Of a stretch of 62,324 nt of DNA, positions 15,281 through 61,333 are shown in pieces. Origin of the DNA: an uncultured Bacilli bacterium (lineage in GTDB: Bacteria; Bacillota_I; Bacilli_A; RF39; UBA660); contig CANRDL010000001.1 of NCBI GenBank assembly GCA_947629405.1, positions 73,502 through 135,825 of the forward strand, read 5' to 3'. The stretch's first letter is position 1; each line of letters opens with the position of its first letter. The position numbers and the translations under genes are program-made. The notes beneath the pieces were generated by a model. It made no database searches and was not told the DNA's origin. It saw only the letters and a program-made list of their open reading frames with translations.

Positions 15281-15295
15281 AGCTCTTCTTTTTTT
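15270..15295. terminator. bidirectional terminator between the convergent tig and sigK genes
   Basis: AAGAAGAG (15270-15277) pairs with CTCTTCTT (15283-15290), followed by a T-run. Confidence 0.6.
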
Positions 15296-16001
15296 ATAAA
15301 ATATTATCTGATTTAATAAATTCTCTTAACATTTTAGTAATGGCTCTTTTTTCAATGCGGGATACATAACTTCTAGATATTCCCATTTCTTTAGCTATTT
15401 CTTTTTGAGTCATTTCTTTTTTATTATTAAGACCATAGCGTTTAATTATAATTTCTTTTTCTCGGCCTTTTAAATCAGTTAAATATTTTTTTAAAAGATT
15501 TACATTATTTTTAAGATGAATAGAATCGGCATAATCTTCTGATTCATCTTTTAATACATCTATTAAATTTATTTCATTACCTTCTTTATCATAACCGATA
15601 GAGTCATTTAAAGAAACATTATTATTATTTTTTTTATTTTGTCTAAAATACATTAATATTTCATTTTCAATGCATCTTGCAGCATAAGTAGTTATTTTAG
15701 TTTTTTTATCGTTTGAATAAGAATCTATTCCTTTTATTAATCCAATTGTACCAATAGAAATTAAGTCATCAGTATCAGTATTTTTTGTATCAAATTTTTT
15801 TACAATATGCGCTACTAATCTTAAATTATGTTCAATTAGTTTATTACGGGCTTCCTTATTTCCTTTAATCATTAAATCAATATATTTTTTTTCATCTTCT
15901 GGACTTAGTGGATCAGGGAAAACATTATTGGAATAACTACCAGTAAAAAACATAGCATTTTTAACAATTTCAATTAAAATATTTAAAAACATTAAATTCA
16001 C
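15294..16001 (-). CDS. sigK: sporulation sigma factor SigK (pro-sigma-K), uninterrupted
   Basis: [46 protein letters not shown]...[17 protein letters not shown]...[16 protein letters not shown] is very close to the Bacillus SigK sequence as I recall it. A hydrophobic pro-peptide of about 22 aa is present. Confidence 0.85.
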
Positions 16002-54223: not shown

Positions 54224-54658
54224 ATGGCAAGTTTTTTAATAAAAAGGACTGTTAAAACCAGTAAAATTATTAAAGTAGTAAAAGTAAAAGATAACAGTTA
54301 TGAATTTAAACCTAAAACAGGTTCTGTAAAAAAATTAATAGTAACTGATCCTTTAATAATCCAAAAAATATTAGTAGTTAAATTTAGTAATGCGATAGAT
54401 AAACTTGCTAAAAAAATATACTATTTTATAAATATTGGCGAAACTGATGATACTGATAGTGGAATTTTACTTGGGGAAATTAATAGACTTAGGGGAATTT
54501 TACTTAATAAATATCAAAAATATTTAAATAAAATGCAAGAAGAATATTTTTTAGAACAGTTAAGAATGTTAGAATTACAGCTTAGAAGTAGTCAATTTAA
54601 TTTTAATTATCATGATGAATATATACAAGAAGAAAGAAGAAGTCGTGGAGGTAAATAA
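54224..54658 (+). CDS. hypothetical protein inserted between trmD and rplS
   Basis: 144-aa ORF with GGTGA upstream. No motif was recognised. Confidence 0.45.
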   Translation: MASFLIKRTVKTSKIIKVVKVKDNSYEFKPKTGSVKKLIVTDPLIIQKILVVKFSNAIDKLAKKIYYFINIGETDDTDSGILLGEINRLRGILLNKYQKYLNKMQEEYFLEQLRMLELQLRSSQFNFNYHDEYIQEERRSRGGK

Positions 54659-55967: not shown

Positions 55968-56159
55968 ATGACACAAAAAGAATTAGATTATGTTGAAGAT
56001 GCTATTAAGCATGAAAAAAATTTAGCATCAATAATTACTGAATCAATTGAAGTGTTAGAAGATGAAAAAATTGTATCATTTATGCAAAAACAACTAGATG
56101 ATCATAAATCATTACATAAAAAATTAATGAATTTATTGGAGGAAAAGAAAAATGAATGA
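55968..56159 (+). CDS. small helical protein co-transcribed with the CotF-like gene
   Basis: 63 aa with an AGGAGGA ribosome-binding site. It overlaps the next start. Confidence 0.55.
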   Translation: MTQKELDYVEDAIKHEKNLASIITESIEVLEDEKIVSFMQKQLDDHKSLHKKLMNLLEEKKNE

Positions 56160-56400
56160 TAAATTAATTATGGAAAATTATTTATTACTTTTAAAAAGTA
56201 CTGTAGAAGTATTTGTTCATGGAACTTTAGAAAGCTCTAATCCCGATGTAAGAAAATTATTAAAAAAAGGATTAGATATGATTATGCAAGCGCAAGCAGA
56301 TACATATGATACAATGACTAATAATGGTTGGTATACTATAAACAATGTCCAACTTGATTCTATAAATCAAACAATTCAGAATATTCAAAGTGAAAATTAA
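56152..56400 (+). CDS. spore coat protein F (Coat_F) family protein
   Basis: ENYLLLLKSTVEVFVHGTLESSNPDVRKLLKKGL...NNGWY resembles the Coat_F signature. Confidence 0.7.
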   Translation: MNDKLIMENYLLLLKSTVEVFVHGTLESSNPDVRKLLKKGLDMIMQAQADTYDTMTNNGWYTINNVQLDSINQTIQNIQSEN

Positions 56401-56425
56401 AGTAAACTTTTTGTTTACTTTTTTT
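56401..56425 (+). terminator. intrinsic terminator after the CotF-like gene
   Basis: AGTAAAC-TTTTT-GTTTACT followed by T6. Confidence 0.65.
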
Positions 56426-56448: not shown

Positions 56449-56476
56449 TTGACAAATTATCATAATATGTTAATAT
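56449..56476 (+). promoter_or_regulatory. candidate promoter TTGACA-16-TAATAT for the giant repeat gene
   Basis: TTGACA is at 56449-56454 and TAATAT at 56471-56476. Confidence 0.45.
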
Positions 56477-56560
56477 ATAATTTAAAGAATTGGGCTTTAT
56501 ATTATTTATATTTTGCTGTTAAAAAGGGTATTTAAAAAAATTTTTTACTGAGGGAATTAT

Positions 56561-59500
56561 ATGAAATTAGATACTATTTATACTTATTTTAGTGATTATT
56601 CAGAAGAAAATGTAAATAAAATGTTATCATTTCTAACTGATAAAGAAATGGAGTTAATTAAAATTAGGTTTGGAAATAACTTAAAGGAGCAATTAGATAG
56701 TCAAAACGTTCCTAAAAAAGTTAATACTTCGAAATTTTATAATGAATTTTATAAATCACTAGTTCCAAAAATGAGAAATATTCTTAAAGAACTTACTAAA
56801 AATAATAATTTTTCTGAAGAAAAAATTAACGCTGCTATTAAATTATATTATAAAATTCATAAAAATTTATTTGTTTCTGATGATTTAGTTTATAATAGAG
56901 TGAAAATTGGTAAATATCTTCTTTCTAAAAAAAAGGAATATCATAATAAGACTATAGATATTGAATCATTTATTTTTCTTGACTCTTTAAATATGATATG
57001 GGATATAAATAAATTTAATTTAATAAATAGCTTAAAGTATCTAACAAATATAAAATCAGAATTATTATCTACTTTAAATAAAATTGTAAATAATTATGAT
57101 GAAAGTTCTATTGCCCATTTATTAGTTTTTCTTTATAAAAATAAACTAAATAATTATACCTTTTTAAATTGTTTATACGATGCCTCAGTAATATGTCCAA
57201 TTTTGAACAAAAAATTAACTGATGAGGAATACAAAATTTCAATTTTATATTTTAATAATATTGATTTAAATATTATTTTAAACGCATTTAATATTACCAA
57301 AGAAGAATTTAATAATATTAGAAAAAAATCATTAGATATTATTGTAAATAATTCTAGGTTATTAAAAATTAATTTAATTAATAAATCTTTGAAAAATATT
57401 AAACCAATATCAATTGAAAAAACAAAAGATCAAAATTTAAAGATAGATAATTTTAAACCAATTAATAAAAAAGTTACTAAATCTGTCCAACCTGAAAAAA
57501 TAGAAAATAAAAATTTAAATTTAGGTAATACTCCACAAATTAATCATAATGTAAAATCAAGTAAAAAATCTGGTCCAAAATTAAAGAGTATATATGAGCG
57601 ACTATCAGAATATCCACGTGAAAAAGTTGATGAAGTATTAGATAAATTATCCCAGTACGATAAAGAACTACTTAAAATTAACTATGGTGAAGATTTAGAG
57701 CATCCGAAAAGAAATTCAAATTGTAGTAAATATCAAAAAAATAAACTAAATAATATTCTTATACCCAAAATGAAAGATGCTTTAGAAAATCCTGAAAATA
57801 TTGATAGTATTTTAGCTCAAAAAAGTGGGACAAAATTAAAAAGTATATATGAGCGACTATCAGAATATCCTCGAGAAAAAGTTGATGAAGTATTAGATAA
57901 ATTATCTTCGAAAGATAAAGAATTAATTAAAATGAGCTATGGTGAGGATTTAGATAATCCTAAAAGGAATCCAAATTTTAGTCAATATCAAAGAAATAAG
58001 TTAAATATTATTCTTATACCCAAAATGAAAGATGCTTTAGAAAATCCCGAAAATATTGAAAATATATTTGCTAAAAAATCTGGTCCAAAATTAAAAAGTA
58101 TATATGAACGACTATCAGAATATCCTCGAGAAAAAGTTGATGAAGTATTAGATAAATTACCTTCAGAAGATGAAGAATTAATTAAAATGAGCTATGGTGA
58201 AGATTTAGATAATCCTAAAAGAAGTAAAGAGTTTAATGCTTTATACTCGACTAAATTAAATAATATTCTTATACCCAAAATGAAAGAGGCTTTAGAAAAT
58301 CCGGAAAATATCGATAATATATTTGCTCGAAAAAAACGTAATAAAAAATTAAAAAGTATATATGAACGATTTTCAGAATATTCACGTGAACAAGTTGATG
58401 AAGTATTAGACAAGTTACCTCAAAAAGACGAAGAATTAATTAAAATGGGCTATGGTGAAGATTTAGATCATCCGAAAAGAGATCCTAATTTTAGTCAATA
58501 TCAAAAAAATAAACTAAATAATATTCTTATACCCAAAATGAGAGAGGCTTTAGAAAATCCTAAAAATATTGAAAATACATTTGCTAAAAAAGGTGGTCTA
58601 AAATTAAAAAGTATATATGAACGACTATCAGAATATCCTCGAGAAAAAGTTGATGAAGTATTAGATAAATTACCTTCAGAAGATAAAGAATTAATTAAAA
58701 TTTGTTATGGTGAAGATTTAGATCATCCTAAAAGAGGGGAAAAATTTAATCATTGTAATAAAAATAAATTAAATAATATTCTTATACCCAAAATGAGAGA
58801 AGCTTTAGAAAATCCCGAAAATATTGATAATATATTTGTTCGAAGAAAAAGTGGACCAAAATTAAAAAGTATATATGAACGATTTTCAGAATATTCACGT
58901 GAACAAGTTGATGAAGTATTAGATAAGTTATCTCCAAAAGACGAAGAATTAATTAAAATATGCTATGGTGAAGATTTAGATCATCCTAAAAGAAGTAAAA
59001 AATTTGAAAATTTTCATTCATACAGAATAAATAATATTCTTATTCCAAAAATAAAAGAGGCTTTAGAAAATCCTGAAAATATTGATAATATATTTACTCA
59101 AGAAAGTTATGAAAAACTAAAAAGTATATATGAACGACTATCAGAATATTCACGTGAACAAGTTGATGAAGTATTAGATAAATTACCTTCATATGATAAA
59201 GAATTAATTAAGTTATGTTATGGTGAGGATTTAGATCACCCTAAAAGAGATCTGAGTTTTAAACGATATCATAAAAATAAACTAAATAATACTCTAATAC
59301 CAAAAATGAAAGAAGCTTTAGAAAATCCGGAAAAAATTGATAATATATTGACTAAAAAAGGTGGTCCAAAGTTAAAAAATATATATGAACGATTATCAAA
59401 ATATCCTAGAGAAAAAGTTGATGAAGTATTAGACAAGTTACCTCCAAAAGACAAGAAAATAATTAAGATGTGTTATGGTGAAGATTTAGAGCATCCGAAA

Positions 59501-61207
59501 AGAGATCCGAATTTTAGTATATATCATAAAAATAAACTAAATAGTACTATTATACCTCAAATGAGAGAAGCATTAGAAAACCCTGAAAATATTGATAATA
59601 TATTTGCTCAAAAAAATGGTTCAAAACTAAAAAGTATATATGAACGACTATCAGAATATCCACGTGAACAAATTGATGAAGTACTAGATAAGTTACCTCC
59701 AAAAGACGAAGAATTAATTAAAATATGTTATGGCGAAGATTTAGATCATCCTAAAAGAAGTAAAGAGTTTAAAGTCAATCATTCAAGTAAACTAAATAGA
59801 ATTCTTATACCTCAAATGAAAGAAGCTTTAGAAAATCCTAAAAATATCGATAATATATTTGCTCAAAAAAGTGGGACAAAATTAAAAAGTATATATGAGC
59901 GACTTTCAGAATATCCACGTGAGAAAGTTGATGAAGTATTAGACAAGTTATCTTCAAATGATAAAAAATTAATTAAGTTATGTTATGGTGAAGATTTAGA
60001 TCATCCTAAAAGAAGTGAAAATTTTGTTATTTCTAATTCAGTTAATTTAAATATATCAATTTTACCAAAGATAAGAAAAGCTTTAGAAGATCCTAAAAAT
60101 ATTGATAATATATTAGCTCCAAAAAAATGTGGACCAAAATTAAAAAGTATATATGAACGATTTTCAGAATATTCACGTGAACAAATTGATGAAGTATTAG
60201 ACAAGTTACCTCCAAAAGACGAAGAATTAATTAAAATTTGTTATGGTGAAGATTTAGAGCATCCTAAAAGAAATCCAAGTTTTAGTCGTTATCATAAAAC
60301 TAAACTAAACAATAATCTTATACCTCAAATGAAAGAAGCTTTAGAAAACCCTGAAAATATTGATAATATATTTGCTCAAAAAAGTGGGACAAAATTAAAA
60401 AGTATATATGAACGGTTATCCAAATATCCACGTGAACAAATTGATGAAGTACTAGATAAGTTACCTCCAAAAGACGAAGAATTAATTAAAATATGTTATG
60501 GCGAAGATTTAGATAATCCCAAAAGAAGTAAAGAATTTGAAAAAATTCATTCATACAGAATAAATAATATTCTTTTACCAAAGCTGAGAAAAATTTTAGA
60601 AGATCCTGAAAATATTGATAGCATATTAACAAAAAAATGTGGTCCAAAATTAAAAAGTATATATGAACGACTATCAGAATATCCTCGAGAAAAAGTTGAT
60701 GAAGTATTAGACAAGTTACCTCCAAAAGACAAGGAAATAATTAAAATATGTTATGGTGAGGATTTAGATCACCCTAAAAGAGATCCAAGTTTTAGTTTAT
60801 ATCATAAAAATAAACTAAATAATATTCTTATACCAAAAATTAAAAAAAATTTAGAAAATAAAAATAAAATAAATTATGAATACAAATTATCTCCAAATTC
60901 AACAGATACTAAATTAAAAAATATCATAATAGAAAATGATTTGAAATTAAACAATTTTGGAATATTATTAACCGGTGAATTAAATAACGATGAATTATTA
61001 ATAGCGTTATTAAAATTTGGGGTTAATATTTCTATAAAAGACATAGCTAATTATTTAAATATTAAGGAAATGGATGTAAAAAAAATCATTAAAAAAGTTT
61101 TAATAATATATAAAAAGAATATTAATCAATATATAGATAATATTGTTAAGGATATTGAAAATAATAAAGAACCTTTTGATGAAAGTAATATACATTTATT
61201 AAAATAA
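56561..61207 (+). CDS. 1548-aa repeat protein: a diverged N-terminal unit, a helical region with an HTH-like segment, 13 tandem 85-86-aa sigma-70-region-4-like modules, and a C-terminal region-4-like HTH
   Basis: A single uninterrupted ORF with a GAGGGA ribosome-binding site. No signal peptide or TM helix is present. The unit consensus is KLKSIYERLSEYPREKVDEVLDKLPPKDEELIKICYGEDLDHPKR-x10-LNNILIPKMKEALENPENIDNIFAQKSG. The C-terminal ISIKDIANYLNIKEMDVKKIIKKVL is HTH-like. Confidence 0.8.
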   Translation: MKLDTIYTYFSDYSEENVNKMLSFLTDKEMELIKIRFGNNLKEQLDSQNVPKKVNTSKFYNEFYKSLVPKMRNILKELTKNNNFSEEKINAAIKLYYKIHKNLFVSDDLVYNRVKIGKYLLSKKKEYHNKTIDIESFIFLDSLNMIWDINKFNLINSLKYLTNIKSELLSTLNKIVNNYDESSIAHLLVFLYKNKLNNYTFLNCLYDASVICPILNKKLTDEEYKISILYFNNIDLNIILNAFNITKEEFNNIRKKSLDIIVNNSRLLKINLINKSLKNIKPISIEKTKDQNLKIDNFKPINKKVTKSVQPEKIENKNLNLGNTPQINHNVKSSKKSGPKLKSIYERLSEYPREKVDEVLDKLSQYDKELLKINYGEDLEHPKRNSNCSKYQKNKLNNILIPKMKDALENPENIDSILAQKSGTKLKSIYERLSEYPREKVDEVLDKLSSKDKELIKMSYGEDLDNPKRNPNFSQYQRNKLNIILIPKMKDALENPENIENIFAKKSGPKLKSIYERLSEYPREKVDEVLDKLPSEDEELIKMSYGEDLDNPKRSKEFNALYSTKLNNILIPKMKEALENPENIDNIFARKKRNKKLKSIYERFSEYSREQVDEVLDKLPQKDEELIKMGYGEDLDHPKRDPNFSQYQKNKLNNILIPKMREALENPKNIENTFAKKGGLKLKSIYERLSEYPREKVDEVLDKLPSEDKELIKICYGEDLDHPKRGEKFNHCNKNKLNNILIPKMREALENPENIDNIFVRRKSGPKLKSIYERFSEYSREQVDEVLDKLSPKDEELIKICYGEDLDHPKRSKKFENFHSYRINNILIPKIKEALENPENIDNIFTQESYEKLKSIYERLSEYSREQVDEVLDKLPSYDKELIKLCYGEDLDHPKRDLSFKRYHKNKLNNTLIPKMKEALENPEKIDNILTKKGGPKLKNIYERLSKYPREKVDEVLDKLPPKDKKIIKMCYGEDLEHPKRDPNFSIYHKNKLNSTIIPQMREALENPENIDNIFAQKNGSKLKSIYERLSEYPREQIDEVLDKLPPKDEELIKICYGEDLDHPKRSKEFKVNHSSKLNRILIPQMKEALENPKNIDNIFAQKSGTKLKSIYERLSEYPREKVDEVLDKLSSNDKKLIKLCYGEDLDHPKRSENFVISNSVNLNISILPKIRKALEDPKNIDNILAPKKCGPKLKSIYERFSEYSREQIDEVLDKLPPKDEELIKICYGEDLEHPKRNPSFSRYHKTKLNNNLIPQMKEALENPENIDNIFAQKSGTKLKSIYERLSKYPREQIDEVLDKLPPKDEELIKICYGEDLDNPKRSKEFEKIHSYRINNILLPKLRKILEDPENIDSILTKKCGPKLKSIYERLSEYPREKVDEVLDKLPPKDKEIIKICYGEDLDHPKRDPSFSLYHKNKLNNILIPKIKKNLENKNKINYEYKLSPNSTDTKLKNIIIENDLKLNNFGILLTGELNNDELLIALLKFGVNISIKDIANYLNIKEMDVKKIIKKVLIIYKKNINQYIDNIVKDIENNKEPFDESNIHLLK
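57569..60893 (+). repeat. 13 in-frame tandem repeats with a period of 255 nt (three units of 258 nt)
   Basis: Unit starts were read at 57569, 57824, 58079 ... 58592 ... 60638. The span from the first to the last start is 3069 nt, which equals 9x255 + 3x258. Confidence 0.9.
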
Positions 61208-61233
61208 TATTACCCTATTTTAAATTTATATAA

Positions 61234-61256
61234 AGCAGGAATAAAATCCTGCTTTT
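61234..61256 (+). terminator. intrinsic terminator after the giant repeat gene
   Basis: AGCAGGA-ATAAAA-TCCTGCT followed by TTT. Confidence 0.7.
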
Positions 61257-61333
61257 GTAATCTTTACTTTATAAATAATTATAAATATATTATAATTAAA
61301 TAACATAAGGCTAATAAACTATAAGGAGATAGA

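Follow-up and report, generated by a model that had tools for sequence, protein, structure and literature searches.

What might be the role of a protein built largely from tandem copies of a module that resembles region 4 of sigma-70 (sigma4)? This question is raised by one gene in a 62,324-nucleotide stretch of DNA from an uncultured Bacilli bacterium (GenBank assembly GCA_947629405.1, contig CANRDL010000001.1, positions 73,502 to 135,825), which is referred to as a whole as the window. The best explanation overall, which we hold with moderate confidence, is that the product of this gene belongs to a family of such arrays, lacks the sigma core that many of its relatives carry, and would act in transcription initiation as a multivalent mimic or tether of sigma4. 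The parts of the protein on which the argument draws are as follows.

56561..61207, + strand: coding sequence, 1548 aa, from the list of open reading frames (ORFs); 182 kDa and isoelectric point (pI) 8.9, from hydropathy and composition
56570..56809, + strand: diverged N-terminal unit, aa 4-83, a fourteenth copy of the module (family unit hidden Markov model [HMM], E 2.4e-19)
56915..57049, + strand: possible relic of sigma region 2.1-2.2, aa 119-163, suggestive (ungapped hhalign)
57200..57343, + strand: weak sigma4-like helix-turn-helix (HTH) segment, aa 214-261, LTDEEYKISILYF...NITKEEFNNIRKKSL (hhalign against sigma4)
57344..57580, + strand: K/N-rich low-complexity linker, aa 262-340, without family match (read from the translation)
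57581..60904, + strand: array of 13 tandem units of 85-86 aa (255-258 bp), aa 341-1448 (Tandem Repeats Finder, unit parsing, unit HMM)
60953..61171, + strand: C-terminal sigma4-like three-helix HTH domain, aa 1465-1537 (family C-terminal profile, hhalign, AlphaFold2, Foldseek)

The repeat unit and its relation to sigma-70 region 4

An earlier note on this DNA had described a giant cytoplasmic protein with 13 tandem units of 85-86 aa, and both descriptions agree with the analysis. Tandem Repeats Finder reported a 255-bp period in 12.9 copies with 81% matches (57564..60859), motif parsing of the translation gave 13 units of 85-86 aa each from aa 341 to 1448, and each of these units matched the family-wide unit HMM (E 1e-22 to 1e-26). 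The product has neither a signal peptide nor a transmembrane helix, its highest Kyte-Doolittle mean over 19 residues being 1.28.

Evidence for a relationship with sigma factors came from comparison with sigma-70 domain 4 (PF04545, PF08281). The first ~30 residues of the unit follow the group-1 region-4.1 pattern E-x-V/I-D-x-V-L-x-x-L-x-x-x-D/E-x-x-L-I/L-x-x-x-Y/F-G, in line with the sigma4-like start that the note had read in each unit. Pfam Sigma70_r4_2 and Sigma70_r4 match the whole protein at 1.9e-35 and 8e-29 (120.7 and 99.3 bits), a score that is the sum of 13 partial matches covering model positions 1-30 in each unit; one unit alone reaches 14.9 bits against these models, under the gathering score of 25.7, and does not qualify as the whole domain. 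When profiles of 15 and of 53 diverse units were searched against PDB sequences, the matches were mainly sigma factors, led by region 4 of S. aureus and C. difficile SigA (E 7.5e-4 to 6e-3), and some alignments, to FliA and RpoS, covered all of domain 4. The family unit profile, for which 140 diverse units were used, aligned in hhalign with the true sigma4 of sigma factors fused to arrays at an HH probability of 92.7% (E 4e-7), over 51 columns that extend from region 4.1 into the position of the recognition helix. By sequence, the unit is a derivative of sigma4 and not a canonical HTH, and its homology to sigma-70 region 4 holds at the profile level. The relation to region 4 is supported by these profile comparisons; a single unit stays under the Pfam cut-off and gave no significant match by structure search (best E 3.9, discussed below).

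The predicted structure of the unit agrees with the claim that the usual HTH has been replaced. In an AlphaFold2 model of a single unit (predicted local distance difference test score 85.6; 90-96 in a two-unit model), helices span residues 4-7, 13-21, 25-35, 50-69 and 71-83, and a loop (36-49) occupies the position of sigma4's first HTH helix. Beyond this variable loop, the unit differs from sigma-70 domain 4 in an added N-terminal IYExF motif and a C-terminal linker helix. At the level of the whole protein, there are fourteen copies per chain, no sigma region 2 (sigma2), and a terminal domain without the net positive charge of sigma4.

The terminal domain itself has the full three-helix topology of sigma4, consistent with the fuller HTH that the note had placed at the C-terminus. 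The segment aa 1465-1537 matches the family C-terminal domain profile (E 1.7e-14), which in turn matches true sigma4 with an HH probability of 97.7% (E 2e-12). BLASTP aligned it with the C-terminus of P0003, a fused sigma-array protein, at 38% identity over 61 aa, and Pfam Sigma70_r4 matched the domain alone over positions 5-45 of 50 (E 0.01; 15.8 bits against a cut-off of 24.1). In the AlphaFold2 model, its helices (198-209, 214-220 and 225-256 of the model) adopt an HTH arrangement, and Foldseek superposed it on the −35-binding sigma4 domain of M. tuberculosis SigD with a target-normalised template modelling (TM) score of 0.75-0.80 and a root-mean-square deviation of 1.7-1.9 Å; the E-values of this match exceed 1, the domain being a short part of a 270-residue query. 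At the other end of the protein, the diverged copy that the note had placed there is recognised by the family unit HMM (aa 4-83), and BLASTP aligns it with units of P0003 at 33-38% identity.

Between the first unit and the array lies a unique region of ~260 aa, which may include a decayed sigma core. The note had proposed a complete internal HTH at about aa 220-260. Segment aa 214-261 scores 23.8 against sigma4 in hhalign, compared with 11.4 ± 2.1 for shuffled sequences (0/100 reach this score), and BLASTP aligns it with the true region 4 of P0003 (E 0.03); the HH probability is only 14%, so that a sigma4-like trace is suggested here and a complete HTH is weakly supported. For aa 119-163, ungapped hhalign against region 2.1-2.2 of fused sigmas gave 20.4, compared with 12.8 ± 2.9 for shuffles (2/100 reach this score), a similarity over 45 residues with a z of about 2.6. 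The order of the two traces fits a sigma core, with closer spacing than in a true one. Pfam Sigma70_r2 has no match in the 1548-aa protein, no counterpart of sigma regions 2.3-2.4 was found in it, and a sigma-core HMM from fused relatives finds only SigK in the window and not the 1548-aa ORF. Since it is without sigma2, the protein is not a sigma factor. Decayed sigma2 in aa 84-213 was considered only suggestive and was not used as evidence.

Several other whole-protein matches were set aside. Those to FakA-like_C, DUF4279, UBA_6, FRB and LZ_Tnp_IS481 in Pfam were rejected because they are summed repeat noise, being partial and weak or having no individually significant stretch. The model for the MG284/MPN403 C-terminal domain (NCBIfam NF045770) gave 42.6 bits for the whole protein, against a cut-off of 37.3, as a sum of partial matches to model positions 3-26 of 57, in the sigma-4.1-like part of the unit; no single stretch was significant and a single unit did not match at E<=10. 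The match is probably a summed artefact.

The array family, its sigma association and a possible mechanism

The note had known of no 13-unit array. Novelty in this sense did not hold: HMMER, run exhaustively with the unit profile over 1.84 billion cluster representatives, matched 1253 protein clusters at E<=1e-3, 774 at <=1e-10 and 174 at <=1e-30. Many such arrays exist in public metagenomes. Homologues and their repeat numbers were surveyed in the best 150 of the 1253 together with the window protein (151 proteins). All of the best 150 have at least 2 units (range 2-19) and are up to 1987 aa long. The architectures in the survey were as follows.

Sigma core N-terminal to array: 72 proteins, 57 with C-terminal HTH, median 4 units (2-14)
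Sigma core C-terminal to array: 5 proteins, 4 with C-terminal HTH, median 7 units (6-14)
No sigma core, array from N-terminus: 50 proteins, 36 with C-terminal HTH, median 5 units (2-19)
No sigma core, other N-terminal region: 20 proteins, 10 with C-terminal HTH, median 8 units (4-19)
No sigma core, sigma4-like HTH ahead of array: 4 proteins, 2 with C-terminal HTH, median 5.5 units (3-9)

Membership in the family was defined by at least 2 tandem units fitting the profile IYExF..Y..EE[IV]D..[IL]..L....K.L[IL]...YG.[DN]...P......L.PK[IM]K..L. The window protein gives 14 matches to the unit profile (E 2e-19 to 1e-26) and carries the C-terminal domain (E 1.7e-14, as above), which is present in 109/151 surveyed proteins. 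Given these similarities, it is very probable that the window protein belongs to the family and that its parts are of sigma4 ancestry. With at least 13 units in 7/151 proteins, the window array stands at the long end of the range and is not unique.

The family was not recognised as a known, characterised repeat family in any resource consulted. No looked-up member has a functional name, the sole named record being "hypothetical protein [Bacilli bacterium]" (MBQ9833930.1); there is no model for the family in Pfam or NCBIfam; and a full-text literature search found nothing on tandem sigma4-derived arrays or on the MG284/MPN403 family. Word-indexed searches for homologues yielded 3 proteins for the whole protein, 1 for the unit alignment and 5 for P0012, none of them named. 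A scan of GTDB genomes with the window protein gave no match, and scans of IMG/VR and JGI metagenomes gave no close relatives of it. As far as seen, the family occurs solely in low-GC uncultured gut Bacilli, and all family loci examined have 22-28% GC. In these searches, tandem arrays of an HTH-broken sigma4 derivative that end in a sigma4-like domain and that extend or adjoin sigma factors are a new architecture, made of parts of a known kind (sigma-70 domain 4).

The strongest functional clue is the association of arrays with sigma genes, by fusion and by adjacency. A sigma core with region 2 is present in 77/150 of the best representatives (72 upstream of the array and 5 downstream), and many of these cores are RpoD-like. 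The sigma part of P0003, for example, has as its best NCBIfam match the Firmicute RpoD model PRK09210 (338 bits, under the equivalog cut-off of 572). Arrays without a sigma core in other organisms directly adjoin or overlap sigma genes in 6/6 cases examined:

P0008: followed by a sigma factor plus 8 units, stop and start overlapping
P0036: one of five sigma and array genes in a row
P0012: overlaps an upstream RpoD-like ORF; a 76%-identical relative is one fused 1645-aa protein
P0031: overlaps an upstream 447-aa sigma factor
P0018: downstream of two long sigma factors
P0044: two short sigma factors follow, one of them with units

No conserved non-sigma partner was found beside arrays at other loci, where the neighbours are sigma or unit proteins or are mutually unrelated. 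Together, fusion and adjacency make a role linked to transcription or to sigma factors probable.

Two of these loci deserve description in their own right. Locus L086 (1144..17379), in the Bacilli bacterium metagenome-assembled genome (MAG) GCA_017435485.1, has five consecutive sigma or array genes on the same strand, whose products are a sigma-like protein (387 aa), a protein that combines 3 units with a sigma4 (600 aa), a sigma factor carrying 2 units (956 aa), and arrays of 1865 aa (19 units) and 1585 aa (16 units). At locus L087 (5343..10300), the last part of an RpoD-like ORF already encodes the beginning of a unit, and this ORF runs 16-49 nt into a second one that encodes a 12-unit array; since the 76%-identical relative P0179 encodes one 1645-aa protein, the split is due to a frameshift, which may be genuine or a product of sequencing error.

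Few bacterial proteins have been studied as thoroughly as sigma factors. To our knowledge, their known elaborations are the N-terminal region 1.1, non-conserved inserts, and the C-terminal extensions of extracytoplasmic function (ECF, group 4) sigma factors, the last being single globular domains in the cases we know. The ECF41, ECF42 and SnoaL-type extensions modulate the sigma factor that carries them. There is a parallel with the arrays, since array and terminal domain extend a sigma core in about half of the best-scoring members, and by analogy an array extension would be expected to modulate its sigma factor. Important differences are that the extension here is a tandem array, with up to 14 modules in fused forms, that many of the cores are RpoD-like with regions 1.2-4, and that the window protein is an extension without a sigma factor. 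A second parallel is with UPF0122/YlxM (PDB 1s7o, 1xsv), small sigma4-type domains outside a complete sigma factor; both structures are among the matches of the model that includes the C-terminal domain. SigO-RsoA of B. subtilis is a two-subunit, or split, sigma factor, and its distribution of sigma functions over adjacent genes resembles the pairs of sigma and array genes. Neither UPF0122/YlxM nor SigO-RsoA has tandem repeats, and no sequence relation beyond the shared sigma4 fold was found.

How might an array without a sigma core act? Domain 4 of sigma factors has as partners the beta-flap tip of RNA polymerase and sigma4-binding regulators. The module (~75-85 aa) keeps the region-4.1 helices and the helix aligned to the recognition helix, with the first HTH helix replaced by a fast-evolving loop. 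In the proposed mechanism, the window protein, laid out as one module, the ~260-aa unique region, 13 modules and the terminal sigma4-like domain, would engage through its modules and terminal domain the partners of sigma domain 4, namely the beta-flap tip, or sigma4-binding regulators and partner sigma factors, and the units themselves would not read DNA sequence. Having no detectable functional sigma region 2, the protein is unable to act alone as a sigma factor. It would work in trans on sigma-dependent transcription, whether as a competitor, as a sequestering scaffold or as a co-factor. Protein partners are favoured over DNA because of the lost HTH helix, the failure to find an HTH structural match, the acidic unit cores and the neutral terminal domains. 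The unit cores of the window protein have net charges of −6 to +4 and are negative in 10/13 array units. The C-terminal domains average −0.1 in the family (+1 in the window protein), compared with +3.6 for the true sigma4 of fused sigmas. In place of sigma4 TRERIRQ, which starts the recognition helix and presumably contacts DNA, the family consensus has eeEVi and the window protein KEMDVKK. This specific mechanism, a scaffold mimicking sigma4, is a tentative proposal. The note had suggested a scaffold that binds nucleic acid or RNA polymerase; polymerase binding fits the sigma association, and nucleic-acid binding by the units is, if anything, made less likely by the lost helix and the acidic cores.

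The main rival explanation is that the protein binds DNA at many points, as a polydentate or nucleoid-associated protein whose basic C-halves, linkers and terminal HTH would hold an extended AT-rich tract. Arrays would then give fused sigmas extra upstream contacts, much as the alpha C-terminal domain binds UP elements, and the window protein would be an architectural protein or a repressor. In its favour, the unit descends from a DNA-binding domain, and the C-half of the unit is basic (mean +3.2 in the family and +1 to +7 in the window protein, with KKSGPK-type linkers). The topology of the terminal HTH is near that of the −35-binding domain of SigD, and in genomes of 22-28% GC extra promoter contacts could help. 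It has to contend with the unit model, which has no first HTH helix and for which no HTH fold match was found, with unit cores that are mostly net acidic in the window protein, and with a family terminal domain that is neutral and differs at the TRERIRQ-aligned positions. We consider polydentate DNA binding rather unlikely.

Several observations weigh against the sigma4-mimic explanation as applied to the window protein. No sigma gene adjoins the window gene, unlike those of its relatives, and the protein is not fused to a sigma core; fusion or adjacency is frequent in the family and not universal. Foldseek of the single-unit model against the PDB gave no significant match (the best was SigA region 4, with E 3.9 and TM scores of 0.34-0.42), and a Foldseek search of BFVD with the same model likewise gave no significant fold match. 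The orientation of units relative to one another is predicted without confidence (predicted TM score 0.37), and the statistics for a sigma relic in aa 84-261 are weak. The C-halves of the units and the linkers between them are basic and the pI of the protein is 8.9, so that DNA or RNA could still be bound.

The wider interest lies in the hundreds of protein clusters with sigma4-derived modules (2-19 among the best 150), entirely uncharacterised and linked to a central machine. If arrays modulate RNA polymerase recruitment or competition between sigma factors, they would add a layer of transcription control specific to this lineage, a major uncultured group of the animal gut. The module would also represent a small helical repeat scaffold of a new kind. 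Because its array is among the longest and most regular, the window protein is convenient for structural and binding studies; the sigma context for which its relatives are most intriguing is missing from it, and its function is inferred.

Array integrity and evolution of the units

Tandem repeats of 255 bp are difficult for short-read assemblers, and a version with 9 units exists in another assembly, raising the question of whether a shorter gene was inflated by mis-assembly. We consider there to be a minimal chance of this. The array is not mis-assembled, since its units are all distinct (pairwise nucleotide identity 71-89%; longest exact inter-unit repeat 92 nt) and a 98%-identical allele (P0001) has 13 units in unchanged order in three other independent sample assemblies, contrary to the mis-assembly that the note had named as a possible refutation. 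Moreover, 11 near-identical sequences (a cluster at >=90%) of the unrelated family member P0008 are all 1607 aa long. The 9-unit version (P0002, locus L002) is a second allele in which units 4-5 and 10-11 of the window allele, and no others, are missing, and if either version is an artefact, the collapsed short one is the likelier.

Both alleles have features of their own. At L002 (4359..7980), an extra A in an A-run (…ATGAAAAAATATTCTTAA…) shifts the frame after the first unit, giving a 75-aa ORF (the first unit) and a 1093-aa ORF; the contig was reported from 3 samples. The frameshift and the difference between 9 and 13 units may be real polymorphism or assembly collapse. The contigs of the three assemblies with the 13-unit allele (L088, L089 and L090) all end ~35 nt 5' of the called start, and within positions 1-50 they have ~45 nt unlike the window, the match starting at window codon 21. 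Possible explanations are an alternative 5' end, a rearrangement with its breakpoint in the first unit, and an assembly break common to all three.

Evidence that the units are maintained as protein came from the ratio of nonsynonymous to synonymous divergence (dN/dS), given as mean pairwise values among the 13 array units (mean pairwise dS ~0.45). The ratio is 0.17 in the first 44 columns, the sigma-4.1-like half, and 0.36 in the helix aligned to the recognition helix; it is ~0.98 in columns 44-57, the loop that replaces the HTH helix, and ~1.0 in the linker between units. The units are therefore old, their silent sites having diverged, and individually maintained as protein. With purifying selection between units and an ORF intact in 4 assemblies, the window protein is functional; the loop and the linker are either unconstrained or diversifying.

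These data bear on the idea that the gene is a decaying remnant of a sigma-plus-array fusion, with its function lost or residual. The region of the sigma core, where only weak traces similar to sigma 2.2 and sigma4 are seen, would fit such a remnant, as would the sister strain, frameshifted after the first unit and with four units fewer, and the lack of conservation of the gene at this locus in 80 related genomes. Against decay stand a frame of 1548 codons that stays open in DNA of 23% GC, the strong purifying selection that each unit shows in its conserved half, the sharing of the 13-unit allele by several samples, and the presence of a promoter-like site, a ribosome-binding site and a terminator. 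We therefore regard the remnant explanation as having a very small chance of being correct.

The loop (columns 44-57) occurs in two types that are interspersed irregularly along the array: D/N-P-x-F-S-x-Y-x-K-N-K-L-N in units 2, 4, 7, 8, 11 and 13, and S-K-E/K-F-...-H/Y-S-x-x-L/I-N in units 3, 6, 9 and 12. Comparison of alleles suggests, at the sequence level, gene conversion between units. The N-half of P0001 unit 9 is closer to window unit 7 (97%) than to unit 9, that of P0001 unit 5 is equally near window units 5 and 7 (93% each), and the unit of P0002 that corresponds to unit 9 (its unit 7) also has a unit-7-type N-half.

One interpretation of the loops is that each has its own DNA or protein target, making the array a programmable multivalent reader or tether and a hitherto unrecognised means of extending sigma factors. 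If this were true, the make-up of an array and its length would determine which promoters, RNA polymerases or regulators meet, and free-standing arrays would be trans-acting organisers or sequestering hubs in reduced-genome gut Bacilli. We regard this interpretation as improbable.

A different interpretation invokes phage. T4 AsiA and phage G1 ORF67 are anti-sigma factors that dock on sigma region 4, and an array could be a decoy or sponge that titrates such factors and shields host transcription. Among the unit's top PDB sequence matches is domain 4 of S. aureus sigmaA in crystals with G1 ORF67 (4g6d/4g8x), and both the strain difference in unit number (13 and 9) and the loop dN/dS of ~1 fit an arms race, the latter being explained equally well by relaxed constraint. 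There is also a weak PADLOC and NCBIfam similarity to sigma-type MzaA, which spans 25 residues and reflects only common sigma ancestry. The window has no defence-island context around the gene (rplS, lepB, Coat_F-like genes and a CobB-type deacylase), and phage relatives were not found by phage tblastn or in IMG/VR or BFVD. A decoy is therefore highly improbable, and it, the remnant and the artefact are all less likely explanations than the sigma4-mimic and DNA-binding alternatives. As a separate matter, identification as a phage or defence protein was rejected, since the PHROG and PADLOC matches are summed partials without a significant stretch; tblastn against phage and plasmid records gave no match.

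Expression signals, neighbouring genes and organism

The signals and neighbouring genes located in the window are as follows.

15294..16001, − strand: sigK, 235-aa SigK (NF004471, 332 bits; TIGR02846, 317 bits, above cut-off)
55968..56159 and 56152..56400, + strand: two small overlapping ORFs (63 and 82 aa) directly upstream of the array gene
56449..56476, + strand: promoter-like TTGACA-16 nt-TG-n-TAATAT, ~85 nt 5' of the start codon (consensus scan, 10/12 matches, extended −10 TG)
56550..56554, + strand: Shine-Dalgarno-like GAGGG, 6 nt 5' of the ATG (direct reading of the sequence)
61232..61265, + strand: terminator-like hairpin (61232-61255; 9-bp stem, 4 GC pairs) followed by a T-rich tail (terminator scan and sequence)

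The note had given the gene its own promoter and terminator, and a candidate for each was located. The promoter-like site is weak evidence by itself because chance matches are frequent in AT-rich DNA; in this DNA of 23% GC, 76 such sites were observed and 57.7 expected. An AT-rich hairpin with a T-run at about 56401-56425 follows the two small upstream ORFs.

The neighbours of the gene are rplS, lepB, the two small Coat_F-like ORFs and, downstream, a canonical CobB-type NAD-dependent deacylase (240-aa SIR2). The 82-aa upstream product has a Pfam Coat_F match in the orthologous locus L002, and neither small ORF matches any NCBIfam model. The note had placed the gene beside sporulation (Coat_F) genes. 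This neighbourhood does not recur, and no evidence for a link with sporulation was found: in an RplS-anchored scan, 0/80 related loci had a unit protein within 10 kb of rplS, and family members elsewhere adjoin sigma genes, not spore-coat genes. Identification as a spore-coat or sporulation protein was rejected, the protein having no such Pfam or NCBIfam match and the Coat_F linkage being seen only in this species.

The window DNA uses the standard code and includes sporulation genes such as sigK, which is the sole sigma gene in the 62-kb window and lies 40 kb from the giant gene. The presence of SigK implies that the organism is, or descends from, a spore former. MAGs labelled uncultured "Bacilli bacterium", from gut samples of rabbit, mouse, goat, chicken and Hadza humans, have an RplS that is 71-82% identical to that of the window. 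Candidatus Ventrenecus avicola, Candidatus Coprovivens and "Mycoplasma sp. CAG:776" are among the related records. These belong to the kind of uncultured Bacilli orders, related to Mycoplasmatales, that PMC10868615 discusses.

Two further observations concern gene content. A 144-aa ORF without NCBIfam match (54224..54658, + strand) lies between trmD and rplS and is an unusual insertion in an otherwise conserved trmD-rplS stretch. Downstream of the fused sigma-array gene for P0003 (locus L001, 16211..23597) is a run of genes encoding a SIR2 protein, a dCMP/MafB19-type deaminase, an Mrr_cat nuclease and an ADP-ribosylglycohydrolase, together with NUDIX, GrpB and a DNA methylase, which may represent a defence-like or NAD/ADP-ribose-related island.

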